A stretch of 64,000 nt of DNA from Patescibacteria group bacterium (GCA_041649575.1 JBAZMW010000001.1:23944-87943), one strand, 5' to 3'. Positions 3,017-57,156 are shown, counted from the stretch's first letter. The notes: generated from the letters alone by a model not told the origin. Numbers and translations: made by a program.

Positions 3017-3062
3017 AAACGTTAATTTAAAAACTTAAAAATATTGTTTTAAGCGACAGGCC

Positions 3063-5936: not shown

Positions 5937-5940
5937 ATTA

Positions 5941-5967: not shown

Positions 5968-5981
5968 GAAAATCAATAGAT

Positions 5982-6989: not shown

Positions 6990-7077
6990 TTTTTGCTATT
7001 TTTGTCCAGAACTTCAGCTAAAGTTGAAAAAAACAAATTTTTATGGTAATTTTAAAAACATAACGGTTAATTTTACT

Positions 7078-37919: not shown

Positions 37920-38366
37920 ATGGAACAAATAGTAGTACCACAATTTTTAGACGTCGAAGACAAGATTATCGGTCCGATAACCGTGCGTCAGTTTATCGAA
38001 ATGATGATTGGCGGTTTGCTTTGCTTCATCTTTTATAAACTGTTTGATTTTTCACTTTTTGCTGTGGCTTCGCTCTTGGTGATTCTGGTCACTCTGGTCA
38101 TCGCTTTTGTCAAAATAAACGGCCAACCCTTTCATTATTTTTTGTTGAATTTTTTTGGCACCGTCAAAAATCCCAAATTGAAAGTTTGGCGCAAAGACGT
38201 GACGCTGGCCGATATCAGGGCGCTAGAGGCCAAACAGCCGGTGACCAAGCCGCCAACGGTGGCGGGAACAAGGCAGATACTCACCACTTCCAAAATATCG
38301 GAGCTGTCTTTGATTGTTGATACCGGCGGTGTCTATCGCGGCGAGGAAAAGCTAGCTATTAAATAA
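37920..38366 (+). CDS. PrgI-family (VirB3-like) small membrane protein
   Basis: 'VPQFLDVEDKIIGPITVRQFIEMMIGGLLCFIFY' matches the PrgI-family N-terminal motif (VP.d..vkdkiffGLT.RQf). It is followed by two TM helices. It sits immediately upstream of the VirB4-family ATPase, as in Gram-positive T4SS operons. Confidence 0.55.
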   Translation: MEQIVVPQFLDVEDKIIGPITVRQFIEMMIGGLLCFIFYKLFDFSLFAVASLLVILVTLVIAFVKINGQPFHYFLLNFFGTVKNPKLKVWRKDVTLADIRALEAKQPVTKPPTVAGTRQILTTSKISELSLIVDTGGVYRGEEKLAIK

Positions 38367-38379: not shown

Positions 38380-39063
38380 ATGGCTTCAAGAGTAGCTAAT
38401 AAAAAAACCCCAGCCACCCAAAGGCATCTACATATTGTAGAAGTCAGAGACGATTGCGTGGTAATGAAAGACGGCAGCTTAAGAGCCGTACTGCTGGTGT
38501 CGAGTATAAATTTTGCCCTGAAGTCAGAGGACGAGCAAAATGCCATCGTGGCCGGTTATATGTCGTTTTTGAACTCTTTGGATTTTCCAATTCAGATGGT
38601 GGTGCAGTCCCGGCAACTTGATTTGGATGAATATCTGGCGGAAATAAAAAATGCCGAAGACAACCAGACCAATGAGCTGCTAAAGTTGCAAACAGCGGAA
38701 TATCGCCAATATATCACGGAACTGGTTTCGCTGGGCGATATTATGACCAAAAGATTTTTTGTGATCATACCTTATGACCCTCTGTCCAACAAAAAACGGA
38801 CTTTTTGGCAGAGAACGACCGACGTTTTGTCGCCAACCAGCATTATTAATTTGAAAGAGAAGCAATTTATCAAACGAAGAGAGGATTTGTTGTTGAGGAT
38901 CGACAAGGTGATTTCCGGATTGTCCAGTATGGGACTAAGAGCGTCGCTATTAAATACCCAGTCACTAATAGAGTTGTACTACAGCACCTACAATCCGACG
39001 ATTTCCAGAAGCGAGAAAATGGTTGATACTAATAAATTAAGAATCGAAGAAAATTTTTTATAA
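38380..39063 (+). CDS. VirB4-family N-terminal region (separated from the ATPase ORF by a single in-frame TAA)
   Basis: 'DGSLRAVLLVSSINFALKSEDEQNAIVAGYMSFLNSLDFPIQMVVQS' resembles the extreme N-terminal segment of Gram-positive VirB4/TraE/PrgJ homologues. It is in the same reading frame as ORF 39067; the stop at 39061-63 is followed by the ATG at 39067. Confidence 0.5.
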   Translation: MASRVANKKTPATQRHLHIVEVRDDCVVMKDGSLRAVLLVSSINFALKSEDEQNAIVAGYMSFLNSLDFPIQMVVQSRQLDLDEYLAEIKNAEDNQTNELLKLQTAEYRQYITELVSLGDIMTKRFFVIIPYDPLSNKKRTFWQRTTDVLSPTSIINLKEKQFIKRREDLLLRIDKVISGLSSMGLRASLLNTQSLIELYYSTYNPTISRSEKMVDTNKLRIEENFL

Positions 39064-39066
39064 AAT

Positions 39067-40971
39067 ATGTTTGACCCGAAAGACTTAGACAAAAAAAACG
39101 ATTTAATTACTCCAACTGTCGAACCGGAGATAAAATTAAGTGCGGAGCAGTTAAACCGGCAAGAAGCGCAGGAGCTGGGAAAAACCAAAGAAAGCCTGGA
39201 AGAAGAGATTGTCTATCGCCGCGGGGCGATGACCATTCGTGACTTGGTGGCGCCGGCGGCTTTGGAGGTGGAAAGCTCTTTTGTCAGATTGGGCGAATAC
39301 TATGTCACGACGATTTTTGTCGTGCAGCTGCCGCGCTATATTAATGTTGGCTGGTTTGCGCCGGTGATAAACCTGGATATTACCGCCGATATGGCGCTGT
39401 ATTTTTACCCGGTTAAATCAGCGGTTATTTTGAAGCAATTAAAAAAGAAAGTCGGTAATGTCGAGGCGGGACTGATCGCCGACGCGGAAAAAGGCGCTCC
39501 GCGCGATCCTTTAAGGGAGACGGCTTTAAGGGATATGGAAAGACTGCGCGACGAACTGACCCAAGGCACGGAACATTTCTTTCAGACCGGCACTTATATA
39601 ACAATTTACGCCAAGAGTTTGGAAGAGCTCGACAAAATCACGGAACGGGTGGAAAACATTTTTGGCTCAACCCTGGTTTTTTCCAAACGGGTTTTTTATC
39701 AAGCCGAACAGGGGTTCAACTCAACCATGCCTTTTGCTTTCGATGAATTGCAGGTTTTGGTAAATATCAACACTTCGCCGGCCGCCAGCTCTTTTCCTTT
39801 TGTTTCTTCGGATTTGACTTCCGATCGCGGCGTGCTTTTTGGCATTAATCGCCACAACAATAGCTTGATTTTATTCGATCGGTTTTCTTTGCAGAATGCC
39901 AACATGGTGGTGTTTGCCACCTCTGGCGCTGGCAAATCCTACGCCATCAAGCTGGAGGTTTTGCGCAGTTTGATGTTTGGCACCGACATTATTATTATCG
40001 ACCCGGAAAGAGAATACAGTCACTTATGCGATGCGGTGGGCGGGACTTATATTGACATTTCTTTGAACTCGGAAAGCAAGATTAATCCTTTCGATTTGCC
40101 TCGGGCGATTGGCGAGGACGCGAGGCCAGCCGATATTATCAGGAGCGCAGTGATTACGGTAAAAGGATTAATTAGATTAATGATCGGCGACATTGACACC
40201 GAGGAAGACTCCATCATTGACCGAGCGCTGCTGGAAACTTATGCCAAGAAAGACATCACTCCCGATGTTGATTTGACACAAATTGAGCCGCCGATTTTGT
40301 CGGACTTACAGGAAGTTTTGGAAGGCATGGAGGGAGCGGAAAAAATCTCGATCCGGTTAAAGAAATATACGGAAGGCACTTTCGCCGGCTTGTTGAACAA
40401 TCCAACCAACGTGGAAACCAATAATCAACTGGTGGTTTTCAGCGTCCGTGATTTGGAAGACGAATTAAAGCCCATGGCTATCTATACGATTATCAATTAT
40501 ATTTGGAATATCGTCAGAAGCCAGATGAAGAAAAGGATTATGATTGTCGACGAGGCCTGGTGGCTGATGCAGCGCGAGGATAGCGCCAAGTTTATTTTTG
40601 CTCTGGTAAAACGGTGCCGTAAATATTACCTGGGCGTGACCACCATTACCCAAGATGTTAACGATTTTTTGACTTCTCCTTACGGTCAGGCAATTGTCAA
40701 TAATTGTTCGCTGCAGCTGTTAATGAAGCAGACGCCGGCAGCCATTAATTTGGTGCAAAAAACCTTCATGTTGACCGAAGGAGAAAAATATTTGCTTTTG
40801 GAGTGTGGCGTGGGCGAGGGTATATTTTTTGCCGGCGCCAAGCACGCTGCCATAAAAACGGTCGCTTCCTATTCCGAAGATCAATTAATAACCTCTGATC
40901 CGCGCCAGCTGCTAGAAATCGAACAAGCCAAAAAGGAATTTGAGGAATCACTTGCTGCCGGGCAAGTCTAG
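39067..40971 (+). CDS. VirB4/TraC/PrgJ-family type IV secretion ATPase
   Basis: Walker A is 'VVFATSGAGKSYAIK', the Walker B-like motif is 'IMIVDEAWWLMQ', and there is the typical 'YYVTTIFVVQLPRYINVGWFAPVINLDITADMALYFYPV' N-domain. Confidence 0.75.
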   Translation: MFDPKDLDKKNDLITPTVEPEIKLSAEQLNRQEAQELGKTKESLEEEIVYRRGAMTIRDLVAPAALEVESSFVRLGEYYVTTIFVVQLPRYINVGWFAPVINLDITADMALYFYPVKSAVILKQLKKKVGNVEAGLIADAEKGAPRDPLRETALRDMERLRDELTQGTEHFFQTGTYITIYAKSLEELDKITERVENIFGSTLVFSKRVFYQAEQGFNSTMPFAFDELQVLVNINTSPAASSFPFVSSDLTSDRGVLFGINRHNNSLILFDRFSLQNANMVVFATSGAGKSYAIKLEVLRSLMFGTDIIIIDPEREYSHLCDAVGGTYIDISLNSESKINPFDLPRAIGEDARPADIIRSAVITVKGLIRLMIGDIDTEEDSIIDRALLETYAKKDITPDVDLTQIEPPILSDLQEVLEGMEGAEKISIRLKKYTEGTFAGLLNNPTNVETNNQLVVFSVRDLEDELKPMAIYTIINYIWNIVRSQMKKRIMIVDEAWWLMQREDSAKFIFALVKRCRKYYLGVTTITQDVNDFLTSPYGQAIVNNCSLQLLMKQTPAAINLVQKTFMLTEGEKYLLLECGVGEGIFFAGAKHAAIKTVASYSEDQLITSDPRQLLEIEQAKKEFEESLAAGQV

Positions 40972-41598: not shown

Positions 41599-42273
41599 AT
41601 GTTTGAAGATATTGGGCAGATAAAGGGTTGGCTGGAGGATTTGTTGTTTCCCAAGAGTTGTGTTAATTGCCGACAGGAGAAGAGCTGGCTTTGCGGTGAA
41701 TGTACAAAATTATTAAAGGCCGTTGCGATGAATTTGGGCTCTCATGTTTTTGACAGCGGTAATCATTTAGAAAAATTATGGGCTTTGACCGATTATAACG
41801 ATCTGCTGGCGCAAAAAGTGATTCAGGCCATTAAATATAATTTTATTAAAGAGTTGGTTTGTAGCTTCGACAGTCTGATTGTGGAAATGGAAAAGATAAT
41901 ACCCGCCTGGTCTAGGGAATTCGTTTTATTGCCGGTTCCTCTGCACCAGAAACGTCTCTCCTATCGAGGATTTAATCAAGCGGAATTAATCAGCGAGAGA
42001 ATAAGCCGGCTACTAGGCAACCCTTTAGGCGACAAAATTTTAAAGAGAAAAATTTATACCAGGCCACAGGTTGGTCTAAGCCAAGCGAAGCGCCGGGAAA
42101 ATATCAAAGGAAGTTTTTTATTGGATAATAAAGTCGAGTGGCGCTTCCCTAGAAATAATGTGGTTTTGATTGACGATGTCTACACGACCGGAGCGACAAT
42201 GGGGGAGTGTGCCGAAGTTTTACAAAAGGCAGGATTTACAAACATCAAAGGACTGGTAATAGCTCATGGTTGA
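41599..42273 (+). CDS. comFC: ComF family protein (ComFC-type phosphoribosyltransferase-domain competence protein)
   Basis: N-terminal Zn-finger 'CVNCRQEKSWLCGECTKLL' and C-terminal PRTase motif 'VVLIDDVYTTGATMGECAEVL'. Confidence 0.7.
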   Translation: MFEDIGQIKGWLEDLLFPKSCVNCRQEKSWLCGECTKLLKAVAMNLGSHVFDSGNHLEKLWALTDYNDLLAQKVIQAIKYNFIKELVCSFDSLIVEMEKIIPAWSREFVLLPVPLHQKRLSYRGFNQAELISERISRLLGNPLGDKILKRKIYTRPQVGLSQAKRRENIKGSFLLDNKVEWRFPRNNVVLIDDVYTTGATMGECAEVLQKAGFTNIKGLVIAHG

Positions 42274-43514: not shown

Positions 43515-45569
43515 ATGACTGGTTTAGAAACAAAAGTTAACCAACTCTCGGGCATTGGCAAGACCATTAGCCTAAGATTGAAAAGATTAGGAATTGAGAC
43601 CATTGGCGATCTCATTTTTTATTATCCCTTTCGTTATGATGACTTCAGCCAGCTGACAACCATTGACCAGCTAAAAAGCGGTTCGGTGACAACGGTTAAG
43701 GTAAGAATGGAGTTGCTTGCCAATCGTCGGACATTTAGAAAAAAGAAAATAATTACCGAAGGCGTAGCCAGCGACAGCACCGGTTCGATAAAAGTTATTT
43801 GGTTCAATCAACCCTGGATAGCCAAAAATATCAAAGTGGGCGAAGAGATTTATCTCTCCGGCAAAGTGGCCGGCAACCTGTTTGATATTTATCTCAATTC
43901 GCCACTTTATGAAAGAGCTGCTGCGGCCAACCTTAATACCGCCAGATTGGTGCCAATTTATTCGATCACCGAAGGAGTTTCGCAAAAGCAGTTGAGGGCT
44001 TTGGTAAAAATAGCTTTGAATTTTGTGGGGAATGTTTCAGATTTTTTGCCCGAAAAAATAGTCAAACAAGAAAGGCTATTAAGCCTGCCGCTGGCTTTGA
44101 AACAAATTCATTTCCCGGAAAACCACAAAAAACTAGCGGCGGCCAGAACCAGACTAGCCTTTGAGGAGTTATTCTTATTGCAGCTTTGGTCGCAACTGAT
44201 AAAGAAAGAGCTGGATCAGAAGACTTCCTGGCCGGTGGTTTTTCAGCGGGAAAAAATAAAGGAATTTATTGACGGTCTGGATTTTAAACTGACGACAGAC
44301 CAAAAAAAAGCTGCTTGGGAAATCATCCAGGACTTGGAGAAGAAGCGGCCGATGAATCGTCTGTTAGAAGGCGATGTCGGTTCGGGCAAGACGCTGGTAG
44401 CGGCTCTGGCCATCTTTAACACTGCTTTAAACGGCTATCAGAGCGTCTTATTGGCGCCGACAGAGATTCTGGCCCGGCAGCATTTTCAGACTTTTGATAA
44501 ATTATTTAAAAATAAAGATTTGAAAATCGGTTTATTAACCAGGAGTAATAAACTAATAAACCAAGAAGAAGTCGGTAAAAAGGAATTTTTGGCTCGTTGC
44601 CGGGCAGGAAAAATACAGATTATTATTGGGACGCACGCGGTTATCCAAAAAGAAGTGGCTTTTGCGAAGCTGGCTTTGGCAGTGATTGACGAGCAGCACC
44701 GCTTTGGTGTTGATCAGCGTCAGATTTTGAAAAAGCAGTCGGAGAAAACTCCGCATTTTTTGTCGCTGTCGGCCACCCCTATTCCGCGTTCCTTGGCTTT
44801 GATAATTTATGGCAGTCTGGATTTATCAATCATTAAACAGCTGCCGCCAGGCCGCCGGCCGGTAATTACCAAGGTAGTGGCTCCAGAAAACAGACAGTTG
44901 GCCTATGAATTTATCAGCAAAAAAATAACAGAGGGCCGGCAGGTGATGGTGATTTGTCCGTTGATTGATCCTTCAGATAAACTAGGAGTGCGTTCGGTGA
45001 CGGAAGAATTTAAAAAGCTGGACCAGGAGGTTTTTCCTCATTTACCAGTAGGGTTGTTGCACGGCAGACTGAAAGCCAGCAATAAAGAAAAGGTGATGGC
45101 CGAATTCGTGGCCGATAAAATAAAAATTCTAGTAGCCACCTCGGTAGTGGAGGTGGGAGTGGACGTGCCCAATGCCACAGTGATAATGATTGAGGGGGCA
45201 GAACGTTTTGGTCTGGCCCAGTTACATCAGTTTCGGGGACGAGTGGGGCGTGGCCGAGAACAGTCCTATTGTTTTCTTTTCAGTGCTAGCCCGGACCAAG
45301 AAACGGCCAAAAGGTTGTCGGCAGTGACGGCAACCAGTGACGGTTTTATACTGGCACAAAAAGATTTGCAACTAAGAGGCGCCGGTCAGATCTATGGCTA
45401 TCGGCAGTCTGGTTTTGACGAGCTTAAAATCGCCAATCTTGATGATTTGCCTTTAATAAAAAAAGCCCGTTTCTGGGCAGAAAAGATAATCAACGATGAC
45501 TGTTTAGATAAATACCCTTTGCTGCTTGAAAAAATCGAAGCCTTGGGGCTCACCAGTCATTTAGAATAA
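43515..45569 (+). CDS. recG: ATP-dependent DNA helicase RecG
   Basis: Wedge/OB N-domain and the helicase motifs 'GDVGSGKT', 'VIDEQHRFGV', 'SATPIPRS' and 'QLHQFRGRVGRG'. Length is 684 aa. Confidence 0.9.
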   Translation: MTGLETKVNQLSGIGKTISLRLKRLGIETIGDLIFYYPFRYDDFSQLTTIDQLKSGSVTTVKVRMELLANRRTFRKKKIITEGVASDSTGSIKVIWFNQPWIAKNIKVGEEIYLSGKVAGNLFDIYLNSPLYERAAAANLNTARLVPIYSITEGVSQKQLRALVKIALNFVGNVSDFLPEKIVKQERLLSLPLALKQIHFPENHKKLAAARTRLAFEELFLLQLWSQLIKKELDQKTSWPVVFQREKIKEFIDGLDFKLTTDQKKAAWEIIQDLEKKRPMNRLLEGDVGSGKTLVAALAIFNTALNGYQSVLLAPTEILARQHFQTFDKLFKNKDLKIGLLTRSNKLINQEEVGKKEFLARCRAGKIQIIIGTHAVIQKEVAFAKLALAVIDEQHRFGVDQRQILKKQSEKTPHFLSLSATPIPRSLALIIYGSLDLSIIKQLPPGRRPVITKVVAPENRQLAYEFISKKITEGRQVMVICPLIDPSDKLGVRSVTEEFKKLDQEVFPHLPVGLLHGRLKASNKEKVMAEFVADKIKILVATSVVEVGVDVPNATVIMIEGAERFGLAQLHQFRGRVGRGREQSYCFLFSASPDQETAKRLSAVTATSDGFILAQKDLQLRGAGQIYGYRQSGFDELKIANLDDLPLIKKARFWAEKIINDDCLDKYPLLLEKIEALGLTSHLE

Positions 45570-45584: not shown

Positions 45585-45614
45585 TTGACAAAAAATAAAC
45601 AGGGGAGTTATAAT
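45585..45614 (+). promoter_or_regulatory. consensus sigma70 promoter (TTGACA-17-TATAAT)
   Basis: TTGACA at 45585-90, a 17-nt spacer, TATAAT at 45609-14, located 16 nt after the recG stop. Confidence 0.5.
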
Positions 45615-45725
45615 AAAATCACTCGTTCTTTCGATGATTGCCTGGCGAAAGGAGGTCAACCGGCTTTAAAGGCGATTTGTGAAAGAATAACGGTAGGGTT
45701 CATACAACAGGAGGAGAATGGTGGC

Positions 45726-45938
45726 ATGGAGACACGGGTGGTAAAAGCGGTGGAGCTGGCAACAGCAACGGCGGTGGTTTGCTCTGTTCGGGGCTGCGAG
45801 AATCGGCTCAACAGAGACAGGGCTGAACTCCTGCAGAGGCATGGGCTGAATTTGACCTGTGTACACTGCCAGGAGAAGATAGAGGCCGGCGCCTCGCACT
45901 TCTTCCAGGGCGGCGAGATCGTCCTCGCGCGGACATAG
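45726..45938 (+). CDS. small GC-rich ORF encoding a putative zinc-ribbon protein (70 aa)
   Basis: 'METRVVKAVELATATAVVCSVRGCENRLNRDRAELLQRHGLNLTCVHCQEKIEAG…' carries a CxxxxC…CxxC arrangement. It is preceded by AGGAGG and has GC-rich codon usage unlike host genes. Confidence 0.3.
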   Translation: METRVVKAVELATATAVVCSVRGCENRLNRDRAELLQRHGLNLTCVHCQEKIEAGASHFFQGGEIVLART

Positions 45939-45962
45939 AGGATGGTCGAAAAGCATGCTCGT

Positions 45963-46004
45963 GACGGCTGTCGGACCGGCAAGGTTCGCGGCCGTCGTTT
46001 TTTT
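45963..46004 (+). terminator. intrinsic terminator
   Basis: 'gacggc…gccgtc' stem followed by 'gtttttttgtttt'. Confidence 0.5.
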
Positions 46005-46014
46005 GTTTTATCTC

Positions 46015-46042
46015 TTGACAGCAATCAGAAAATTGTTATAAT
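46015..46042 (+). promoter_or_regulatory. near-consensus sigma70 promoter (TTGACA-16-TATAAT)
   Basis: TTGACA at 46015-20 and TATAAT at 46037-42. Confidence 0.45.
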
Positions 46043-46130
46043 TCATCTTAAGTAGACAGTTGTTCCTTGGTCTGGTTCCTTTGGGGGAGCCAGTTGGCTG
46101 CGAGTTCAAATAGGATAGGAGTACATTGAG

Positions 46131-46292
46131 ATGAAGATGAGGCTGACACCGCCAGATAAGGAAATTATGGAGATACTGGCGGCCCACAAGGGCGGCCATA
46201 TCACGGTGACGGAGGCAAGCCAGATGCTGAAGACGAAAGTAGGCTTGCCGGCGTCCTCACGAGAGAAGGAGCACCAGGCTCTGTGCAACTAG
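46131..46292 (+). CDS. small GC-rich ORF (53 aa) with putative helix-turn-helix
   Basis: The protein is 'MKMRLTPPDKEIMEILAAHKGGHITVTEASQMLKTKVGLPASSREKEHQALCN'. The 'ILAAHKGGHITVTEASQML' stretch resembles an HTH. AGGAG lies 8 nt upstream. It is below the ORF-track size cutoff. Confidence 0.3.
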   Translation: MKMRLTPPDKEIMEILAAHKGGHITVTEASQMLKTKVGLPASSREKEHQALCN

Positions 46293-46352
46293 AGCCCTAC
46301 TAGCGAGCCAGCGAGCGTCCCCAGGTTAGGAACGAGGTCTTCTGATGCGATG

Positions 46353-47705
46353 TTATTGCGTTGGAAGCCTCTTTTTTTTGCCGATAATTTTAACAAGCTC
46401 TCTGATATCACTAATAGAAACAACCCTTGTTTTATTAGTAGCAGCACCCTTGTTTGGCGGGGAGACGATTTTCTCGAAGTTAAGCTTGAGGGCTTCAGAG
46501 ATAATTTTTTCCATTTGCGGTACCGATCGAATTTCGCCGGCCAGGCCCAGCTCGCCAAAAATCAAGAGCCCAGGGCTAACAGGCAGTTCTAAAAAGGCAG
46601 AAATTATAGCGGTAGCAACCGCTAAATCCACACCAGGGTCTTTTATTTTCAAACCGCCGGCAATATTTAGGTAAATATCCTGGTTATTAAGGTTGAGTTT
46701 GGCTATTTTGGAAATCACGGCAATAATTAACTGCAGACGATTAAGATCAAAGCCGGCAGCTTTTCTTTGGGGATAGCCAAAAACAGTTTTGGTGACCAGC
46801 GCCTGCACCTCTAGAAAAAACGGCCGTTGACCTTCTATCACTGCGGTGACAACCGCACCAGTGGCCGGATAATTTTCTTTTTCCAAAAATACTTGTGAGG
46901 GATTGCTGACTTCTTTCAGGCCAAGGTCGGTCATTTCAAAAACGCCTATTTCTCCAGTGGAGCCAAAGCGATTTTTACTGCTGCACAAAATTTTATAAAA
47001 ATTTTGGTTGTCATTTTCCAAATACAGGACGGTATCGACCAGGTGTTCCAAGCTCTTAGGTCCGGCGACCAGCCCTTCTTTGGTGACGTGGCCGATAATG
47101 ATGATAGGGATGCCAGATTTTTTGGCCACTTCCAGCAGCTGACTGGTAATGGAGATAATTTGCGCGGCCGAGCCCAGATTAGAGGCGGGATCATGAAAAC
47201 GCATAGTCTGGATAGAATCAACAATAGCCAGTTCCGGCTTGACTTCTTCGATGGTGGCGATGATTTTACCGATGTCGGTCTGGGCCAAAAAACGCAGATT
47301 ATTAAGATCCAGGTTGATTCTTTGGGCTCGAATCTTTACTTGATTGCCGGACTCCTCGCCGGAGACATAAAGAACATTTTTTAATTTATCGGAGATTTGC
47401 AGGCAGAGGGTCGATTTGCCAACGCCCGGATCGCCGCCGATCAAGATCAGAGACCCCTTGACTATGCCGCCTCCTAAAACCCGGTCCAACTCTTGAATTT
47501 TAGTAGAGAGTCTGGCCTGACTGATGTCGGGCAATTGCTTCAGATCTATTGGTTGGTCAGGCGCGGTTTTGGGCGTTTTTTTATCGTTGTTTTCAACGGC
47601 TTGCTCCTGAATGGTTCCCCAAGAGCCGCATTCCAAACAGCGCCCTTGCCACTTGGGATATTGGGCGCCGCATTTGAGGCAGGAATAAATTAAGCTATGG
47701 GCCAT
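46353..47705 (-). CDS. radA: DNA repair protein RadA/Sms
   Basis: N-terminal C4 zinc finger 'CLKCGAQYPKWQGRCLECGSW', RecA-like Walker A 'GGDPGVGKSTL', 'KNRFG' and a Lon-protease-like C-terminal domain. Confidence 0.9.
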   Translation of the reverse strand: MAHSLIYSCLKCGAQYPKWQGRCLECGSWGTIQEQAVENNDKKTPKTAPDQPIDLKQLPDISQARLSTKIQELDRVLGGGIVKGSLILIGGDPGVGKSTLCLQISDKLKNVLYVSGEESGNQVKIRAQRINLDLNNLRFLAQTDIGKIIATIEEVKPELAIVDSIQTMRFHDPASNLGSAAQIISITSQLLEVAKKSGIPIIIIGHVTKEGLVAGPKSLEHLVDTVLYLENDNQNFYKILCSSKNRFGSTGEIGVFEMTDLGLKEVSNPSQVFLEKENYPATGAVVTAVIEGQRPFFLEVQALVTKTVFGYPQRKAAGFDLNRLQLIIAVISKIAKLNLNNQDIYLNIAGGLKIKDPGVDLAVATAIISAFLELPVSPGLLIFGELGLAGEIRSVPQMEKIISEALKLNFEKIVSPPNKGAATNKTRVVSISDIRELVKIIGKKKRLPTQ

Positions 47706-47706: not shown

Positions 47707-48492
47707 TTATTTTAGGTAACATTGGCAGGAGTAAGTATTAATGGTGTCTCCATTTTTTGGGGCGTGGGTGTAGACCAGGTTAGCGTATCTTTCAGAGCAC
47801 CAAGAGAAGCAGAGTTGATCGGCGGCCTCCTGACTGTTAGCTTTAATGTCGGTGGGGCCATTACGATAATTCAGAGTAGTCGCTTTGTCACGGCAAAAAC
47901 AGGACCATAAATTAGGACTACTGCCTTGCTCTACACGTTCAAACTCCTGGTTGTTGTTAGAACATTGGTTTTGGCATTGTTTTTCGGCTTCTTCTTTACT
48001 ACCGGTAGAAGCTAAGCCGACTGGCTGGGTGCTGGCAGTGGGGGTTGTAACACTGTCTAAATGCGGCATCGTTATCACTGTCAGCTTGGGATTGATCAAA
48101 TACAAAATAGTGAAAGACAAAAAAGCCAAGACCAGACCAATCAAGGCGGAGATAATAATCTCTTTGGCCTGTCCGATCTCGGAACTATTGCCTCGAGAAG
48201 CCAGCCACTTGAATCCGCCCCACATCACCATCACCGCCGCCAAGACTCCCACGGCGCCGATGATTAGACGATACCAAATATTAAAGTAAGTGCCCAAGAT
48301 GTTAGCATCGGTGACATTAAATTCTTTGGCCATATTGCCGAGAGGCACATTAAGGCAAACTTTTCCTGCTGGGCAAGAGCCGGCGGCTCCGGAGGCGGCT
48401 GCCGGAGTTTCTCCGGGGGTAGCTCCCAAAGCCAGAAGAGGAGCAGTAAAAAACAAGACAACCAAAAATAAGATTATTATATTTTTTTTCAT
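47707..48492 (-). CDS. secreted protein with TrbC/VirB2-pilin-like membrane module and Cys-rich C-terminal domain
   Basis: Signal peptide, then the module 'LIIGAVGVLAAVMVMWGGFKWLASRGNSSEIGQAKEIIISALIGLVLAFLSFTIL' (hydrophobic-WGG-basic-hydrophobic, pilin-like), then a C-terminal 8-Cys domain. Confidence 0.45.
   Translation of the reverse strand: MKKNIIILFLVVLFFTAPLLALGATPGETPAAASGAAGSCPAGKVCLNVPLGNMAKEFNVTDANILGTYFNIWYRLIIGAVGVLAAVMVMWGGFKWLASRGNSSEIGQAKEIIISALIGLVLAFLSFTILYLINPKLTVITMPHLDSVTTPTASTQPVGLASTGSKEEAEKQCQNQCSNNNQEFERVEQGSSPNLWSCFCRDKATTLNYRNGPTDIKANSQEAADQLCFSWCSERYANLVYTHAPKNGDTINTYSCQCYLK
48058..48269. repeat. 212-bp direct repeat copy A (~99 % identical to 49110-49321)
   Basis: Aligned by eye, there are 3 mismatches over 212 bp. 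It encodes the shared pilin-like TM module of the two adjacent paralogs. Confidence 0.8.
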
Positions 48493-48506
48493 TTTATTGG
48501 CGGTTT

Positions 48507-49688
48507 TTAGAGACAGGACGTTTGCGCCCGATTAATGAACTGTTGTTCGCCATCGGCGCTTTCTAAAATATTGGCGTTACTGTTGATTCGGCTGGATACC
48601 CCCATACCCGGATCGGTTTTGAAAAAATTAAGGTAGTTGGTCCTCATATATTGGGCGGCTCCCGCTCGATCGCCAGCCCGGATTCTAGAAGCGGTTTCAC
48701 TTAAAAATACTGAATTAGGACCAAATTGATAAGCGGTGTCTGCTAAAACCGCTTTAGCCTGGGGATCAAGTCTCTCCCAGCCGTCGCCATAAGCGTTGGC
48801 CGCTCCCGGCCAATAGGTATTATTGTAATTATTCCAAAACCAATTTTTTTCCGTTTCATAATCGACAGAATTCGGCCTTTGGTCGCTATTATGCCCAAAG
48901 CCATAAGTATAGCCGTGCAGGTCGGCATAAGGAGTGCTGTTGTATCCCTCATAAGAAGCGGTAAAGGCATGATAATAATCAACGCCACCGGCGGTTTCTG
49001 AGCAAGGAACTTTGGCTTGGGAGTAATATGGCCCTGGCAGACCGTTTGGGTCGACAGATAAAGAGATGCCTCTGGGAACAAGGTTGGTATGAACAACCTG
49101 CACACTATCCAAATGCGGCATCGTTATCACTGTCAGCTTGGGATTGATCAAATACAAAATAGTGAAAGACAAAAAAGCCAAGACTAGACCAATCAAGGCG
49201 GAGATAATAATTTCTTTAGCCTGTCCGATCTCGGAACTATTGCCTCGAGAAGCCAGCCACTTGAATCCGCCCCACATCACCATCACCGCCGCCAAGACTC
49301 CCACGGCGCCGATGATTAGACTAAACCAAACAGCAAGGTAGTCTTCCAGGCCAGAGGCGGTAGTTTTGGAGCCAAGAGGCACATTAAGCTTAATACTGAT
49401 TGATCCTTTTGATTCTTCGGAATTAATTCCGACAGGGCCGCTGAATTGATCGAGAGTTTCTCCGGCGGCCAAGAAGGAGCGACAGCCTTGCTGGCAGGTT
49501 ATCAAGAGAGAATCGTTGGCCGCCCTGGCCAGGCCCTGATTTTCCCTGTTTCCATAATCCGTGTAACATTGGTTGACGCAGTCGGTGTATTTTGTTTTGT
49601 CGGCCAAAACATTTTTTGGCAACAAGCTGATGGCCAAGAGGATAATCGCAGGCAAAATTATTCTTAACAGTTGTCGTTTGGTGATCAT
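48507..49688 (-). CDS. secreted pilin-like-module protein fused to a GH24 (T4-lysozyme-like) peptidoglycan hydrolase domain
   Basis: It carries the same TM module as ORF 47707. The C-terminal domain 'YEGYNSTPYADLHGYTYGFGHNS…LDPQAKAVLADTAYQFGPNSVFLSETASRIRAGDRAGAAQYM' matches the phage-lysozyme pattern E-G-x…Y-x-D…T-x-G-x-GH and the A..D.AYN.G/…I..GDW..AA helix. Confidence 0.55.
   Translation of the reverse strand: MITKRQLLRIILPAIILLAISLLPKNVLADKTKYTDCVNQCYTDYGNRENQGLARAANDSLLITCQQGCRSFLAAGETLDQFSGPVGINSEESKGSISIKLNVPLGSKTTASGLEDYLAVWFSLIIGAVGVLAAVMVMWGGFKWLASRGNSSEIGQAKEIIISALIGLVLAFLSFTILYLINPKLTVITMPHLDSVQVVHTNLVPRGISLSVDPNGLPGPYYSQAKVPCSETAGGVDYYHAFTASYEGYNSTPYADLHGYTYGFGHNSDQRPNSVDYETEKNWFWNNYNNTYWPGAANAYGDGWERLDPQAKAVLADTAYQFGPNSVFLSETASRIRAGDRAGAAQYMRTNYLNFFKTDPGMGVSSRINSNANILESADGEQQFINRAQTSCL
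49110..49321. repeat. 212-bp direct repeat copy B
   Basis: See copy A. The spacing between copies is 1052 bp. Confidence 0.8.
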
Positions 49689-50407
49689 CGGTTTAGTTCT
49701 ATTTTGATAATGTTTTCGAAATCGGCCAAAGAAGCTTGTCCGGAGAGCTCCTGGCTGTTGATATAAAAATGAGGCGTACCAGTAAGCAGGAGCTCATCGG
49801 CTTCCTGGACATCTTGCTCAATTAGCTTTTCAATATTTTTGTCTGTTAAACAATCAGAAAAAAGTTTTTCATTTAAATTCAGTTTTTGGGCTAGCGCCAG
49901 AAGATTTTTTGCAGAAAAATTTTTTTGGTTTTGCCACAACAGATCGCTGTAGGCCCAAAATTTATTTTGTTGCCCAGCGCAGCGGGCGGCTTGATGGGCC
50001 AGATAAGAATCTTCTACTCCCGAAAAAGGCAGGTCTTTCCAAACTAGCCTGACCTGATCCGGATATTTTTCAATAATTTTTTTCAACACATTTTGGGTGG
50101 CAGCGCCGTATTCGCAGGAGAAACTGGAAAATTCGAAAATGGTTATTGGCGCATTAGGATTGCCCAAAATTGGCGCTTGGGCTTTCATTTTTGGCTCTAG
50201 GAGTTTTTGTTCGGGCACATAACTGACCAAGCCATTGTCGATCACTGCTTTTTGTCCGGTAAGGGCTGCCGGGGCCGTGTTTTTTAATGCCGTCTGGGTT
50301 TTTTGCCGGGAGACGGAGGCCAAAGACAGCAAAAAGAAAGACACAATTATTATCGCCAAAATAACGAGAATACCTTTGAGATAGTCGGGAGTTTTATTTC
50401 TTGGCAT
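49685..50407 (-). CDS. membrane-anchored DsbA-family thioredoxin-fold protein (active site reads SCEYG rather than CxxC)
   Basis: TM anchor, 'ITIFEFSSFSCEYGAA' in the position of F-x-D-F-x-CPxC, and the downstream 'AARCAGQQNKFWAYSDLLW' DsbA-family helix. Confidence 0.55.
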   Translation of the reverse strand: MPRNKTPDYLKGILVILAIIIVSFFLLSLASVSRQKTQTALKNTAPAALTGQKAVIDNGLVSYVPEQKLLEPKMKAQAPILGNPNAPITIFEFSSFSCEYGAATQNVLKKIIEKYPDQVRLVWKDLPFSGVEDSYLAHQAARCAGQQNKFWAYSDLLWQNQKNFSAKNLLALAQKLNLNEKLFSDCLTDKNIEKLIEQDVQEADELLLTGTPHFYINSQELSGQASLADFENIIKIELNR

Positions 50408-50412
50408 CAGTT

Positions 50413-51651
50413 TTAGATCTTAACTTTGTAAATTTTTTTGGTATTATTGTCGGTGAAGAAAAGCGAATGAGTATCGGTGCTGATGATTAGCTGACCAATG
50501 GAATGATAGCCGTCGGGATTGGCAATAATTTTTTTCGATCCGGTACGCAGATCGATTTCATAAATTTGGTCGTTGACCTCATTGGCTACCTCCGGATCCA
50601 GGCCGACTCCGGCCGGAGGGTTAATGGGAACAGCGCAGAACAGGCGGTCATTGCCGCTAAAGGCGCATTTATTAGCCCAGGTAGTCAGGTCTAATTTGAG
50701 CCGGTTTTCGCCAATCGCTCCGGGCGTGGCTTCGGAAATCCAAAGTTCCGGCTTATAATCGTTGTCGGAACTGTAGACGCTGTAGAGTATTCTTTGGCCG
50801 TCGGGCGACCATTTCCCTTGAAAGCCGCGGCCCTCCACAATCATCAGTTTGAAATTTTCATTATTTAGGCCAATAAAATAGACTTCGGAACGATTAGCGT
50901 CTTTGCCTTGAGTAAAGGTGGCCACCATCTGGTTGTTGGGCGACCAGTTGGAGTCGAATTTATCTTCCACGCCGCCGATTCTTTCCAGGGTTTTGCTTTG
51001 CGAACCGTCATAGTTGGCAACTGCCAAAAAACGATTTTCTGGATCCAGGGCCAAGCTTTTGAAAACCAGCTTTTCGTCATTGGGGGAGAAAGAAAAATCT
51101 TCCCAATGGTTGGGCAGAGTCAGTTGCTTCTTGTTTTTGAAATCATAAACAATATTGGAGCCGTCCGGATATTCTAAAACGGCCTTTTCCAAGTTGTTAG
51201 ACCAGCTGACATTCTTGACGTTATAGAAAATTTTGTCGCTGAATTCGCTGATTTTGCCGTCGAGAGAAAGGCGATAGAATTTGCCGGTTTTAGGATCATA
51301 ATAGACCAGCTCGCCGTTTTGGGAACTGGAAACAAAATAAGCGTTATCCTTGCTTACCAATTCGGTTTCATTGGTTGGGGCAGTGGTTGGTTCGAGAGTG
51401 GTTGCCGGGGTTTTGCCGTTGACGTTCTCGGTTGTCGGTAATTGGCCGTTAGCATCAACAGTATAAATTTTGCCGTTAATATTCACAGTTAGCGGCAAGC
51501 GGCCATTAGCATTGGCATTAGTATTAATATTGGCGTTGGTTGGCGGCACAAAAAAACTGCGGAAAAAAAAGTAATAAAGAAAAAAGCCAAACAAGGCAAT
51601 CGCGACAATAAAAAGAAGGATGATCCCTATTTTTTTCCAATCCAGTTCCAT
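50413..51651 (-). CDS. membrane-anchored TolB-like / PD40 beta-propeller repeat protein
   Basis: N-terminal TM, then repeated 'SPDG/SPN…' blades (KWSPDGQRILYSVYS; NWSPNNQMVATF; FSFSPNDEKLVFKS). Confidence 0.5.
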   Translation of the reverse strand: MELDWKKIGIILLFIVAIALFGFFLYYFFFRSFFVPPTNANINTNANANGRLPLTVNINGKIYTVDANGQLPTTENVNGKTPATTLEPTTAPTNETELVSKDNAYFVSSSQNGELVYYDPKTGKFYRLSLDGKISEFSDKIFYNVKNVSWSNNLEKAVLEYPDGSNIVYDFKNKKQLTLPNHWEDFSFSPNDEKLVFKSLALDPENRFLAVANYDGSQSKTLERIGGVEDKFDSNWSPNNQMVATFTQGKDANRSEVYFIGLNNENFKLMIVEGRGFQGKWSPDGQRILYSVYSSDNDYKPELWISEATPGAIGENRLKLDLTTWANKCAFSGNDRLFCAVPINPPAGVGLDPEVANEVNDQIYEIDLRTGSKKIIANPDGYHSIGQLIISTDTHSLFFTDNNTKKIYKVKI

Positions 51652-51669
51652 GGTTGTTTAAATTATTTT

Positions 51670-53031
51670 TTATTGACCGCCAATTCTTTGAGCCGCCTCT
51701 TGCACGGCAGTGTTGCCTCCGGGCAAAGCTCCGGCCAGCCAAATCATGGCGCCGCCCCAAAGGCCAATATTATAGATCCGGTAGCCGACGTAAAGTATCA
51801 AAGCGATAATGCTAAACAAAATTCCGTTAATAATGGCCAGAATAATTATTTCGGTCCATTTAGCCAGCTCTTTTGGCAGCCACCGGCCGATCAAGTAGTC
51901 TTCGCCAAAGTCGGCTATTTTATCGGTAAAGAGGGTGGTTGCCAGATAGAGATTCAGTCCCCAAAGAGTGAGAGTAGTCCAATCAAGCCAGACCGCTCCC
52001 CACATTGAAGTAAGAATGGCGGCACTCTCTTGCTTGACGGCCAAATTAACCGTAGCTTTGGCATCGGAAATTTTTAAAGAAGCGGCTAGGCTGGCGGCTT
52101 GTTTAAAGTTGTTTCTCGATTTCTCCCTGGCGCTTTGAATTCTTTGTTCTGTCGTTTGCCTTAGTTTGTCAGCTTCTTTTTCTTTGCTTTTATTTTTTTC
52201 TGATTCTTTTTTGTTTTCTTCTTCGACTTCTGGGGTTGGTGCTTGCGATTTTAGATCGCCGTTTTTTTCGTCTTTTTTGCCAGTGGCGTCTTCTTTTGGT
52301 TTTTTATCTTTTTTATCATCCTCCCCCTTTTTCTCACCTTCCGCCTTTTCCGATTTTTTGTCTTTCTTGTCTTTTTTTTCGCCTTCCTTTTCCTTTGCCC
52401 CTGTTTCTCCAGCCGGTTTTTCTTCCTCATCTGTTGCCTCGGCCGGCTCTCCAGCGATATTTTTTTTATGTTCTTCACCGGCCTCGGTTTGTGGTTCTGT
52501 CTCCGTTTCTTCTTCCGAGTCAGAAAAGAGATTGGCATTAGTGTCTTCACCGGCGCCTCCCCAATCTTCACTCTGGTCGTAGATGTCTTCTAGATCATAG
52601 GGATTTTCTTTGTCCCGCGGCAGATAGCCTTCCGCCTCCCTCCTTTTTTCTAACCGGGCTTCCTCCTGTTTTCTTCGTAAAGCGGCAGCCTGGCTGGAGC
52701 TGTCTTTTAGGCCGCCACTGCCAATAATGGAAGCGTTGGCAGCCCGTCTAGCAACACCCAAGGTATCGCCAAAATTTTTTGCTCCGGCTTTGGCTCGGCC
52801 AATCGCTCCTTGCTGGGCCAGAGGAAAACCGCTGGCTCGAGAGCTGATTTTTTGGGCTATTTTGTCTAGTGTTAGGCCGGCAACTCTGGTCATTCTGCCC
52901 GCGCGGCTGTTGGGACTAATGGCGCCAGCGGCTTTGGTTGCCCCGGCCAGGCCTCTTAAGCCAAGAGTGTCCAAAGACCTACCCGCCGGGCGAGAGGTTC
53001 TGTTTAATTGGTGGGCGAGATTATCGGACAT
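51670..53031 (-). CDS. protein with long K/E/D-rich disordered region and C-terminal multi-TM domain
   Basis: 453 aa. The central ~200 aa are low-complexity (EKKDKKDKKSEKAEGEKKGEDDKKDKK…). The C-terminus has 3-4 TM helices. Confidence 0.45.
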   Translation of the reverse strand: MSDNLAHQLNRTSRPAGRSLDTLGLRGLAGATKAAGAISPNSRAGRMTRVAGLTLDKIAQKISSRASGFPLAQQGAIGRAKAGAKNFGDTLGVARRAANASIIGSGGLKDSSSQAAALRRKQEEARLEKRREAEGYLPRDKENPYDLEDIYDQSEDWGGAGEDTNANLFSDSEEETETEPQTEAGEEHKKNIAGEPAEATDEEEKPAGETGAKEKEGEKKDKKDKKSEKAEGEKKGEDDKKDKKPKEDATGKKDEKNGDLKSQAPTPEVEEENKKESEKNKSKEKEADKLRQTTEQRIQSAREKSRNNFKQAASLAASLKISDAKATVNLAVKQESAAILTSMWGAVWLDWTTLTLWGLNLYLATTLFTDKIADFGEDYLIGRWLPKELAKWTEIIILAIINGILFSIIALILYVGYRIYNIGLWGGAMIWLAGALPGGNTAVQEAAQRIGGQ

Positions 53032-53066: not shown

Positions 53067-55547
53067 TTAGGCGTTGACGCTTAACTTTATTATACCATTT
53101 TTTTCGCTAAGCTGCACAGTATTGCCGGCAGAGGCCCTATCTTCAAGAATTTTTTGGGACAGCGGCATTTCTATCAGCTCTTGAATTGTCCGGCTGATGG
53201 CGCGGGCGCCGGGAGAATCTTTTTGGCTTTCTTTGGCGAGAAAAACGATTAGCTTGCGGCTGAATTTCAAAGCAATTTTTTGTTTTTTCAGTTTTTCTTC
53301 CAATTTTTTCAGTTCCAGCTTGACGATGTCTTCCAAATCGTGACTGGAAAGCGGGTTAAAGTAGATTATTTTATCAACCCGATTCAAAAATTCCGTTCTA
53401 AAATGATTTTTAACTTCATTGATAATTATTTTTTCCAGAGGTGAAGAAAACTTTTCTTGACTTTGAGAAAAACCGATGGTTTTCTGTCGCTGAAAACGGT
53501 GGGAACCAAGATTGGAAGTCATGATAATGACAGTGTTTCTAAAGTTAATTTTAACTCCGGTGGCATCGGTCAGGTAGCCATTATCGAGCACTTGAAGCAG
53601 TAAATTGAAAACTTCCGGATGCGCTTTTTCGATTTCATCGAATAAAATTAAAGAGTAGGGACGATGTTTGACTTTTTCGGTCAGTTGCCCGCTCTCTTTG
53701 TAGCCGACATAGCCTGCCGGGGCTCCAATCAACTTGGAAATATTGAATTTTTCGCTGTATTCCGACATGTCAATGCGAATCAGCGCTTCAGGGCTGTTAA
53801 AAATCGATTGAGCCAGAATTTTGGCGGTATAGGTTTTGCCGACGCCGCTTGGTCCGACAAAAATAAAGGAAGCAAGAGGCTTGGTCTCATCGGTTAGTCC
53901 GGCCTTGGCTCTTTTGACAAAGCCGGCAATGGTTTTCAAGGCCCCGTCCTGTCCGATAATCATTTCTTTTATCTGCTGGTCCAAATTAAGCAGTTGGCGT
54001 TTTTCCGAAGAGAGCAGGTTGTCCAGAGGAATGCCGGTGATTTTAGTGAGAATTTGGGCGACATCTTTATCGGTTATTTCACCGATGTTCAAGTGAGATT
54101 TTTTTTGATTTTTTTTCTTTAAGGCGCCTAGCTCTTCGTTTAATAGTTCAACTTGTTTTTTAAACGCCAGCGCTTCGGCAAAGTTTTCACTAAAGATCGC
54201 CGTTTCCTTGTTTTTATTCAAACTGCTTATTTCCTCGGTCAGTTTGTAGATTTTTTTGTCTAGAGCGGATGTTTTTTTGTTAATTCTAATGGCGGCGCAG
54301 GCTTCATCAATGAGGTCGATCGCCTTATCGGGCAAAAATCGTTCCGGCAGGTATCTTTGGCTAAGCGTGATGGCGGCGCTGATGGCCGTTTCATTAATTC
54401 TAACGTGATGAAAATTTTCTAGATTTTCTTTGATGCCCAGTAGGATTTTTCGGCCTTGTTCGCCGGTTGGCTCATCAATTTTTACCGGTTGAAAGCGGCG
54501 GTTTAAGGCCGGGTCGTTTTCGATAGTTTTGCGATAATCCTCAAAAGTGGTGGCGCCGAGGCAATGAATCTCGCCTCTGGCTAGAGCCGGTTTCAAAATA
54601 TTGGCCGTGTCCAGCGACCCGGAGGCCGAGCCGGCGCCGACGATATTGTGGATTTCATCAATGAAAATGATGACTTCGGGACGGTTTTTGACCTCCTCGA
54701 TTATCTGTTTGATGCGGTTCTCAAATTCGCCACGGTACATGGTGCCGGCAATGGTGGCAGTAAGATCTAGCGAATAAATTTTTTTGTCTCGCAATATTTC
54801 TGGCACATCGCCGGACAGGATTTTTTTGGCTAAACCCTCGACGATGGCGGTTTTGCCCACGCCGGGCTGGCCCAAAATAATGGGATTATTTTTGGTGCGG
54901 CGGGACAAAATCTGGATAACCCGACTGATTTCCTCCTCGCGCCCGATGACGGGGTCGATTTTTTTCTGTACTTTGGGCGAAGTCAAATTGACGCCAAAAA
55001 CATCCAGGACTCCGGTTTGGCCGTAGGGGACTTCCGGGTCGAGATATTCCTCCGATCGTTTGCCGATAACCTGAAATATTTCGGTCAGGTCGGGGAGCTT
55101 GGAAGCGCTTTTTAAGACGGCCGCGGCTCTTTGTACCAAATCATTTTCCGAAAGTTTGAAATTGTTGAATATTTTTTTAACCTCCTGGTCTCCGACTTCC
55201 AAGATGGCGGTCAAAAGATGTTCAGTGCCGATGTATTTATGGCGATTAAGATAAGAAATCTGAACTGATTTTTGAATAATTTTTTTGGCGTCGGGAGAAA
55301 ATTGAGGCAGAACTTTTGTCACGGCTTGGTTTTTTGACAAATGACTTTGGGCAATGCTGTTTTTGACTTCGGCCGGCTTAAGCTCTAAAGAATTAAAAAG
55401 CTCGGCGCCGACGCTACCGCGCTGGAGGATCAAACCGTAAAGGAGATGAATCGGATCAATCCAAAAATGGGCCAACTCCTGAGCCAGTTCGGCGGCGGTT
55501 TTAAGAGATTTTTTATAATTATTGGAGAATTTATCCAAAGTGTCCAT
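53067..55547 (-). CDS. clpC: ATP-dependent Clp protease ATP-binding subunit ClpC (class I Clp/Hsp100, two AAA+ modules)
   Basis: Clp_N repeats, Walker A 'GQPGVGKT' and 'GPSGVGKT', a short M-domain and the sensor-2 '[10 protein letters not shown]'. Confidence 0.9.
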
Positions 55548-56598: not shown

Positions 56599-57156
56599 TT
56601 AAAATTTTACCGTCACGTTTTCTTTCTCGCCAGCTTCAGTTTCAAAAAAAGCGAATTCTTTAAAACCCAAGGCGTTGCCTATTAAGTTATTGGGGAAGAT
56701 TTGAATCTTAATGTTAAAGTCACGCACGTTACCGTTGTAGAAGCGTCTAGCTGCTTGGATTTTATTTTCGGTGTCGGCGAGCTCATCTTGTAGCTGCAAA
56801 AAATTTTGGTTGGCTTTGAGGTCGGGGTAGCTTTCGGCCAAGGCAAAGATGGATTTTAAAGTAGCGGAAAGAGCGTTTTCCGCTTTGGCTTTTTCTTCCA
56901 AATTGGCGCCCGGCTTCATGGCGGCGTTTCTGGCTTCGATAACTTTTTGCAAAGTTTCCTGTTCGTGTTTGGCATAACCTTTGACCGTTTCCACTAAGTT
57001 AGGAATCAAATCGTGGCGTCTTTTTAACTGGACGTCAATATCGGACATAGCTTCGTCAGTCCTGGTTTTTAGCTTAATTAAGCTATTATAAACCGCTATC
57101 AGCCAAACAATTATGATGGCTATGGCGGCCAAAACAACCCAAAGAATATCAGTCAT
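56599..57156 (-). CDS. lemA: LemA family protein (second copy)
   Basis: 'DIDVQLKRRHDLIPNLVETVKGYAKHEQETL…ESYPDLKANQNFLQLQDELADTENKIQAARRFYNG'. Confidence 0.8.
   Translation of the reverse strand: MTDILWVVLAAIAIIIVWLIAVYNSLIKLKTRTDEAMSDIDVQLKRRHDLIPNLVETVKGYAKHEQETLQKVIEARNAAMKPGANLEEKAKAENALSATLKSIFALAESYPDLKANQNFLQLQDELADTENKIQAARRFYNGNVRDFNIKIQIFPNNLIGNALGFKEFAFFETEAGEKENVTVKF

Follow-up and report, generated by a model that had tools for sequence, protein, structure and literature searches.

Paired pilin-like genes with a near-identical membrane core and divergent C-terminal domains beside a type IV secretion locus in Patescibacteria

Between the clpC and radA genes of a Patescibacteria group bacterium lies a block of five genes, two of which encode paralogous proteins that join a VirB2-like (PF18895) two-helix core to different C-terminal domains, and these two pilin-fusion genes, together with the sequence that they share, are the subject of this report. 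The DNA analysed, hereafter the window, is a stretch of 64,000 nucleotides (GCA_041649575.1 JBAZMW010000001.1:23944-87943), and positions are counted from its first letter. With clpC and radA included, seven minus-strand genes run head to tail from the one to the other, with successive gaps of 35, 18, 5, -4 (an overlap), 14 and 1 nt. The upstream border is a clpC-type AAA+ chaperone gene (53067-55547; Clp_N, AAA, AAA_lid_9, AAA_2 and ClpB_D2-small domains), followed by genes for a K/E-rich membrane protein, a beta-propeller-like protein, a DsbA-fold protein and the two pilin fusions; the downstream border, 1 nt past the second fusion gene, is radA/sms (46353-47705; Zn-ribbon, KaiC/AAA_25 and ChlI/Lon_C domains). 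Promoter and terminator scans inside the block gave nothing decisive, and the only Rfam matches near it were three tRNAs.

Each pilin-fusion gene contains one copy of a repeat, at 49111-49321 in the upstream gene (copy B) and at 48059-48269 in the downstream gene (copy A), both on the minus strand and each forming the core segment of its gene. The copies match at 208 of 211 nt (98.6%) with a constant offset of 1052 nt, the mismatches lying at 48133, 48160 and 48166 and the longest shared exact run being 103 nt, and outside both edges identity falls abruptly to background. By tblastn, the 64-kb window holds these two copies only. A preliminary description, made from the sequence alone, had already noted a same-strand gene block between clpC and radA and a 212-bp repeat of about 99% identity at 48058-48269 and 49110-49321; both observations are confirmed, and the repeat coordinates agree within 1 nt. 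When 73 codons of the two cores are compared in frame there are five third-position differences, all synonymous: the three repeat mismatches and two further sites immediately 3' of the 211-nt block. In these codons a single residue changes (S/R), at the 5' edge.

The upstream paralog (48507-49688, minus strand, 393 amino acids (aa)) matches PF18895 at 1.4e-9 (38.3 bits against a cut-off of 26.6) and has a signal peptide and an N-terminal region with a CX3C...CX3C pattern; its VirB2-like two-helix core spans aa 114-188 (about 49125-49349), and towards the C-terminus aa ~237-354 (about 48627-48980) form a GH24 lysozyme domain. The downstream paralog (47707-48492, minus strand, 261 aa), which carries the NCBI name 'pilin', matches PF18895 at 7.4e-9 (36 bits against 26.6); behind its signal peptide and a C-x6-C LNVPLG segment, the core occupies aa 66-140 (about 48073-48297), and two CxxxC...CxC repeats mark the C-terminal domain, which takes up aa 148-261 (47710-48051). 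The whole protein has 10 cysteines. No database homologue was found for this Cys-rich domain, every match to the protein aligning through the core. Hydropathy profiles of both paralogs show an N-terminus that resembles a signal peptide and then a pair of long hydrophobic helices. In AF2 models the upstream protein has helices at 114-146 and 151-181, with low overall confidence (pLDDT 57.6), and the downstream protein forms an antiparallel hairpin (65-98 and 103-133; pLDDT 86-94) attached to an unconfident Cys-rich domain. A sequence search of the PDB with the whole upstream paralog returned nothing useful.

The shared 211-nt repeat thus encodes a VirB2-like (PF18895) two-helix membrane hairpin core. 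Both paralogs pass the PF18895 gathering score, which bears out the earlier suggestion of a pilin-like module; the same description had called the proteins secreted, and they are instead predicted to be anchored in the membrane by the hairpin. Its proposal of a relationship to TrbC/VirB2 (PF04956) holds in part. The window protein scores 14 bits (E 0.06), under the gathering threshold of 27.9, whereas one relative, P0034, passes at 33.1 bits, so that homology to TrbC/VirB2 is established at the level of the family only. A match to NCBIfam NF045849 (Mbov_0395) over the two-helix region likewise stays below its cut-off (E 1e-4, 21-22 bits against 40). Both paralogs are longer than the small TrbC/VirB2 precursor of about 100-120 aa, owing to the additional Cys-rich or GH24 domain.

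By profile and motif, the C-terminal domain of the upstream paralog is a predicted GH24 muramidase. Pfam PF00959 scores 17 bits on the window protein alone, against a cut-off of 22.3; the domain matches PHROG 2083, 'internal virion lysozyme motif', at 4e-12, and among PDB entries a three-sequence profile of it reaches 1.5e-7 with T4 lysozyme and gp5. It contains the motif SYEGY..YAD..GYTYGFGH with the catalytic E/D/T intact, and SYEGYNSTPYADLHGYTYGFGH lines up with the EG...D...T-x-G-x-GH motif of T4 lysozyme (catalytic Glu/Asp/Thr, of the E-x8-D-x5-T type).

Core similarity and domain variation among relatives

The core was also compared across related loci (designated L001 and so on), with 72 codons aligned from 36 genes at 20 loci, 12 of which have more than one copy. 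For all 27 cores of the 12 multi-copy loci, the nearest nucleotide neighbour is the locus mate. Nucleotide identity between cores ranges from 58.7 to 95.4% within a locus (median 77%), as against a mean of 53% and a maximum of 70% between loci, and at third codon positions it reaches 94% within a locus against a between-locus mean of 33%. Within-locus synonymous divergence (dS) runs from 0.08, the value for the window, up to saturation.

Sequences on either side of the core follow a different pattern. The 36 residues just upstream of it group by gene position and not by genome: the upstream proteins of the window and L002 (W_up and L002_up) align with a score of 74 and the downstream proteins (W_dn and L002_dn) with a score of 96.5, compared to 32 for the locus mate. 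Similarly, a GH24 domain is found on the upstream copy in the window, in L001 and in L088, and the GH24 domain of the window's upstream protein is orthologous to that of L001_up. Within some older cores there are short stretches of much higher identity, namely a 99-nt sub-tract at 99% inside the 82% core of L002 and one of 108 nt at 95% in L007. Whole-protein identity is 30-46%, a figure that hides the mosaic of converted cores and shuffled ends; counted over the longer protein, that of the locus pairs is only 24-43%.

Comparison of these sequences identifies recurrent intrachromosomal gene conversion between tandem paralogs as the process that keeps the cores alike while the flanks evolve independently. 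The preliminary description had left open recent duplication or gene conversion, and it is the second that the locus-mate cores and position-grouped flanks support. A scenario in which each genome recently duplicated its gene in tandem and then exchanged the N- and C-terminal domains would also make cores cluster by genome, and it has in its favour that C-terminal domains are shuffled among relatives and that copy number varies from 0 to 4; it is nonetheless quite improbable, because the core-adjacent flanks group by position, the GH24 domain stays on the upstream copy, and very recent sub-tracts lie within older, diverged cores. A collapsed or chimeric repeat is barely credible, for although the window comes from one 245-kb metagenomic contig, both copies are in frame with distinct flanks, three mismatches and no exact stretch above 103 nt, and the same two-copy design occurs in 11 other multi-copy loci that were deposited separately, including L003 and L004, from one organism.

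The domains attached to the core vary widely. Among 29 pilin genes at this locus in relatives, 27 match PF18895, and their C-terminal domains include SLT (3), M15/VanY-type peptidases (about 4), GH24 (2), Amidase_2 (1) and 3D (1), the remainder being Cys-rich or unassigned. The idea of a common anchor bearing a variable C-terminal domain, advanced in the preliminary description, is therefore upheld, since GH24, SLT, M15/VanY, Amidase_2, 3D or Cys-rich domains occur on the same core. A family profile searched against 1.84 billion cluster representatives matched 65,391 proteins when the limit was E<=1e-3 and 23,641 when it was E<=1e-10, and the best 150 matches are mostly 200-650 aa long. Domain scans of 131 of these 150 found PF18895 in 130 and TrbC/VirB2 at E<=1e-3 in 36, together with wall-active domains (SLT 18, SLT_2 3, GH24 10, M15_3 4, YkuD 3, glucosaminidase 2 and NlpC/P60 1), such that about 30% of the 131 close representatives have a peptidoglycan-active domain. 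Some family members contain two to six cores per chain, the maximum of six being found in P0048, where they form two internally near-identical groups, and in P0104. P0034, the relative that passes PF04956, has two near-identical cores and an SLT domain; its C-terminus ends in CLLYTSPSPRDS, which we take to be translated sequencing adapter. For annotation, the sequences indicate that many proteins called 'pilin' or 'hypothetical' in these genomes are membrane-anchored peptidoglycan hydrolases.

A conserved locus beside type IV secretion genes

About 7 kb from the pilin pair, on the plus strand, are three core genes of a type IV secretion system (T4SS), namely a PrgI/VirB3-like gene (37920-38366), a TrsD/TraC-like gene (38380-39063) and a gene for a VirB4-like ATPase (39067-40971), identified by PF12666 (35.7 bits) and PF19044 (102 bits), with NF041427 and NF045975 sub-threshold. 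A comF-like gene (41599-42273, plus strand), recG (43515-45569, plus strand) and three tRNA genes connect this module to radA. Among the window genes scanned there is no other PF18895 gene and no other recognisable wall hydrolase.

Conservation of this arrangement was surveyed by scanning species-representative genomes for the propeller-like protein, relatives of which are encoded in 239, and fetching 80 loci from these genomes. About 26 of the 80 share the clpC...radA context, in genomes labelled Buchanan-, Uhr-, Magasanik- or Patescibacteria. The order clpC, membrane protein, propeller, (DsbA), pilin, pilin, radA, with recG convergent beyond, is found in L001, L002, L003/L004 and L005, which come from independent metagenomes, and the whole super-locus, comprising lemA, htpX, clpC, membrane protein, propeller, DsbA, pilins, radA, recG, comF, VirB4, TrsD/TraC-like and PrgI, is repeated in L086 and L088. 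The distance between radA and the PrgI, TrsD and VirB4 genes is 5-7 kb in the window and likewise in L003, L086 and L088. In all, the gene order recurs in about 28 related ABY1-type genomes of several lineages, with variation in the number of pilin copies and in their C-terminal domains: L029 and L032 have none, eight loci have one, nine including the window have two, L088 (found separately from the propeller survey) has three and L061 has four.

The block is thus a conserved chromosomal segment beside the ABY1 T4SS/comF/recG/radA locus and not a recent insertion. The preliminary description had seen in it an accessory cassette inserted between clpC and radA, and had proposed comparing the clpC-radA interval in relatives; that comparison finds the block itself kept across several ABY1-type lineages. 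Horizontal acquisition is highly improbable. clpC and radA are adjacent in ctsR operons of the Bacillus type, and pilin number and the presence of the DsbA gene vary among relatives, both of which speak for a cassette, but the order is maintained across Buchanan-, Uhr-, Magasanik- and Falkowbacteria-labelled genomes, the GC content of the block is not anomalous, and no integrase, transposase or other mobility signature was found in it. Specific origins were also considered and set aside: no phage DNA match was found, the lysozyme domain alone matching in PHROGs; a tblastn search of a plasmid collection with the core, bearing on plasmid or integrative and conjugative element origin, gave no match; and PADLOC returned no defence system.

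Arrays of VirB2-like genes in Patescibacteria have been described by Quinonero-Coronel et al. 2025 (PMC12102498), who searched 3,035 genomes with PF18895 and PF04956. The passages of that paper on these arrays count 1,948 assemblies with VirB2-like genes and 441 arrays, which comprise 2-11 genes and show 'high variability' (amino-acid identity mean 25%, maximum 54%), state that ABY1 T4SS loci commonly hold comF, recG and radA, and suggest that other glycosidases might replace VirB1. In the PF18895 core, the tandem arrangement, the distance of a few genes from PrgI/TrsD/VirB4 and the comF/recG/radA context, the window resembles the arrays as presented there, and its locus falls within that published class, the T4SS pilin arrays of Patescibacteria. 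What sets it apart from them, so far as those passages describe them, is that its proteins are 261 and 393 aa long, possess extra domains (one a muramidase) and have cores that are near-identical in DNA; neither enzyme fusions nor conversion is mentioned in the same passages. Within an incomplete coverage of the literature, enzyme fusions or core homogenisation in Patescibacteria were not found described, and enzyme-bearing pilin-like proteins with conversion-homogenised cores are provisionally regarded as a variant not found described. Statistics of whole-protein identity mask converted cores and shuffled enzymatic ends.

Likeness to other systems is partial in each case. VirB1-type hydrolases such as PrgK of pCF10, TraG of pIP501 and TcpG of pCW3 are also membrane-anchored peptidoglycan hydrolases encoded with monoderm T4SS, often with several domains (SLT, CHAP, muramidase), and their presumed task is to let the apparatus through the wall, but they are single genes with an ordinary N-terminal transmembrane anchor, not a VirB2-like hairpin, and do not form conversion-homogenised arrays. 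The virB2 clusters of Anaplasma and Bartonella (PMC3556328) are tandem paralogs with a conserved hydrophobic core and variation near the N- and C-termini; these, however, are short pilins of diderm alphaproteobacteria, without enzymatic domains, whose hypervariable peptides are read as antigenic variation. Polymorphic toxins (CdiA-CT, Rhs, LXG) share with the fusions a conserved N-terminal module, a sharp motif-marked junction and interchangeable C-terminal enzymes driven by recombination, whereas the domains in the window are wall hydrolases and not nucleases or pore formers, and the trafficking module is a membrane hairpin. No cognate immunity gene is found directly downstream of either fusion, the next gene being the second pilin fusion or radA after gaps of 14 and 1 nt. 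Finally, the Mbov_0395 family of mycoplasma integrative and conjugative elements, to which the two helices match weakly, comprises pilin-like proteins of a monoderm T4SS encoded beside a VirB4 gene, but these are about 80 aa long and lack extra domains.

Possible functions of the fusion proteins

The probable interpretation, in our view, is that the locus encodes pilin-anchored cell-wall enzymes associated with a conserved ABY1 T4SS, with cores homogenised by conversion and a role in VirB1-like wall breaching. Both paralogs are predicted to have a Sec-type signal peptide, a variable N-terminal segment, the hairpin and a variable C-terminal domain, with both variable parts extracytoplasmic; the signal peptide and the R/K-containing loop between the helices point to an N-out, C-out topology, and as the hairpin would place both termini outside the membrane, the enzyme domain would face the cell wall. 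The core would be the part handled by the T4SS machinery, in the manner of VirB2, whether in a membrane pilin pool or in a pilus-like polymer, and the fusions may act as pilin-tethered, VirB1-like enzymes that breach the cell's own wall or that of a host. Unequal recombination could in addition take place between the direct core repeats, and would account for both the 0-4 copies and the shuffled C-terminal domains.

Several observations weigh against this interpretation. L029 has virB4 nearby and no pilin gene at the locus, and L032 also lacks a pilin gene there, while the block itself sits within a string of housekeeping genes. The membership of PF18895 proteins of this lineage in a pilus is a prediction from sequence, and lengths of 261 and 393 aa, together with globular domains, set the two paralogs apart from canonical VirB2 pilins; the six-core chains of P0048 and P0104 are no harder to reconcile with a module that resides in the membrane than with a fibre subunit. 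A Foldseek search of the PDB with the upstream model found nothing below E=1, the downstream model matched generic helical hairpins only (ATP synthase subunit c and designed proteins, E>0.7), and a core profile run against PDB sequences matched no solved conjugative pilin. Moreover, the within-locus ratio of nonsynonymous to synonymous divergence (dN/dS) of 0.02-0.17 is that of ordinary purifying selection, so that identical cores need not be selected for co-assembly; selection for core identity beyond purifying selection was for this reason not adopted.

Of the alternatives, the one that survives best is that the fusions are housekeeping autolysins that remodel the cell's own wall, the PF18895 hairpin being a mere anchor with no T4SS role and homogenisation a neutral by-product of tandem homology. 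The embedding of the genes in the conserved clpC-radA housekeeping string, the virB4-bearing L029 locus without pilin genes, the ordinary dN/dS and the existence of multi-core polyproteins, all raised above, would each fit such a role; so would enzyme classes that are typical of autolysins and the position of the propeller gene next to type IV pilus genes, not T4SS genes, in about 55 other genomes. Nevertheless, we regard it as unlikely, though not far-fetched, given that the super-locus is co-conserved with PrgI, TrsD and VirB4 included, that the core family is related to TrbC/VirB2, and that no other VirB2-like gene was found near the window's T4SS. A further point against simple autolysins comes from Ca. 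Southlakia epibionticum, which cannot do without either the T4SS or its pilin array (Wang et al. 2023, PMC10633639; repeated in a 2025 FEMS review).

It is also conceivable, if doubtful, that the core serves for export and processing and that cleavage after the INPxL / P-x-L junction releases a soluble enzyme effector. TrbC is known to undergo C-terminal processing, and in the present family 21 cores share unchanged N, P and L residues where the second helix ends, identity stops sharply just past the INPxL motif, and a Pro/Thr/Ser-rich linker comes next. No TraF-like or other dedicated peptidase is found among the window genes scanned, however, and the cleavage itself is putative.

A bolder form of the preferred reading, in which fusions are pilin-tethered wall enzymes, is that the ABY1 T4SS builds a pilin-based surface structure, a 'lytic pilus', bearing interchangeable peptidoglycan-cleaving enzymes that breach the wall of a host or neighbour. 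This we consider speculative and rather improbable. Were it true, the enzyme set would consist of muramidase, lytic transglycosylase, amidase and DD-/LD-peptidase, the linkage to comF, recG and radA would mean that wall breaching is coupled to the acquisition of DNA or nutrients, and conversion would keep the cores fit for one assembly machine while recombination at the core junction swapped the enzymes.

What makes the question of interest is that VirB2-like arrays and the T4SS are essential in the sole genetically tractable Patescibacterium. In the lineage of the window, the only pilin-like genes found near the T4SS are joined to predicted wall-cleaving enzymes of several bond specificities, and tethered wall breaching is one function, at least, that can be concretely proposed for these arrays and tested.

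Remaining genes of the block and window

The gene just upstream of the pilin pair (49685-50407, minus strand) encodes a membrane-anchored DsbA/thioredoxin-fold protein (PF13462 4e-28, 99 bits; PF01323 5.9e-18, 65.8 bits). The fold assignment made in the preliminary description is confirmed by hidden Markov models, but the catalytic CxxC reads CEYG when orthologues are aligned. At six further loci the motif is CxxS (CRSS in L001/L013, CPYS in L007 and L012, CPSS in L010 and CEFS in L051), whereas CxxC is kept in more distant orthologues and in L003 (CNFC), and one subclade of these DsbA-fold proteins has therefore turned monothiol. The gene is present in some relatives and absent in others (L002 and L005, for example). 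The Cys-rich modules of the fusions would need extracytoplasmic thiol chemistry, with which a neighbouring DsbA-fold protein is consistent, although the single-Cys site argues for a non-canonical role.

Preceding it is the gene for an N-terminally anchored, beta-propeller-like protein (50413-51651, minus strand), whose PD40, WD40 and TolB matches are all sub-threshold and which is 48-58% identical in four relatives. Its earlier label of TolB-like survives as a weak, partial propeller match; as TolB proper it fails, for the TIGR02800 equivalog, which requires 343 bits, reaches 32 across 94 residues; the organism is, besides, a monoderm. In about 55 of the 80 fetched loci, of Falkowbacteria type, the propeller orthologue adjoins pilM/N/O-pilB type IV pilus genes, so that it has no exclusive tie to the pilin genes. 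At L015, L022, L025, L036 and L067 (~2300-9000) it is divergent from pilM-pilN-pilO-x-pilB, comF and thrS follow, and no pilin fusion is nearby.

The first gene after clpC encodes the K/E-rich membrane protein (51670-53031, minus strand), with a C-terminal hydrophobic domain (aa ~330-453) conserved in syntenic relatives; Pfam, NCBIfam, PHROG and PADLOC gave no match to it, and a word-indexed search returned 2 homologues only. L003/L004 (3405-4275) have a short membrane-protein gene, of 157 aa, with a 23S_rRNA_IVP (four-helix-bundle) gene behind it and another of this kind upstream. clpC is called as two open reading frames (ORFs) in L002, L003, L004 and L007, and the split points differ between L003 and L004, although these are from the same organism. 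Beyond clpC, the gene string that holds the pilin fusions is headed by a LemA-family gene (56599-57156, minus strand), with htpX (M48 peptidase) next; a second LemA-family gene is located at 13038-13613 on the plus strand.

Two large plus-strand genes directly precede the T4SS module. The first (20624-32221) encodes a protein of 3865 aa with 134 cysteines, an N-terminal hydrophobic segment and no Pfam match, and the second (32258-35449) a protein of 1063 aa, also with no Pfam match, whose first 400 residues include some 8-10 hydrophobic segments and which is a candidate for an extended VirB6-like channel protein. Between the convergent recG and radA genes (45585-46352, plus strand) are two small units, each behind a perfect 12/12 sigma-70-type promoter (45585 and 46015), with no Pfam or Rfam match and a GC content of about 0.47-0.51, somewhat higher than that of most neighbouring stretches. 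The first contains an ORF of 71 aa (45726-45938) with two CxxC pairs, and the second an ORF of 53 aa (46131-46292) and a terminator-like hairpin (46339-46367) that overlaps the radA stop. Elsewhere in the window, residues 550-718 of the 1100-aa leucyl-tRNA synthetase (gene at 7024-10326, plus strand) form an inserted Ser_hydrolase / alpha-beta-hydrolase domain (PF06821, 6.4e-17).

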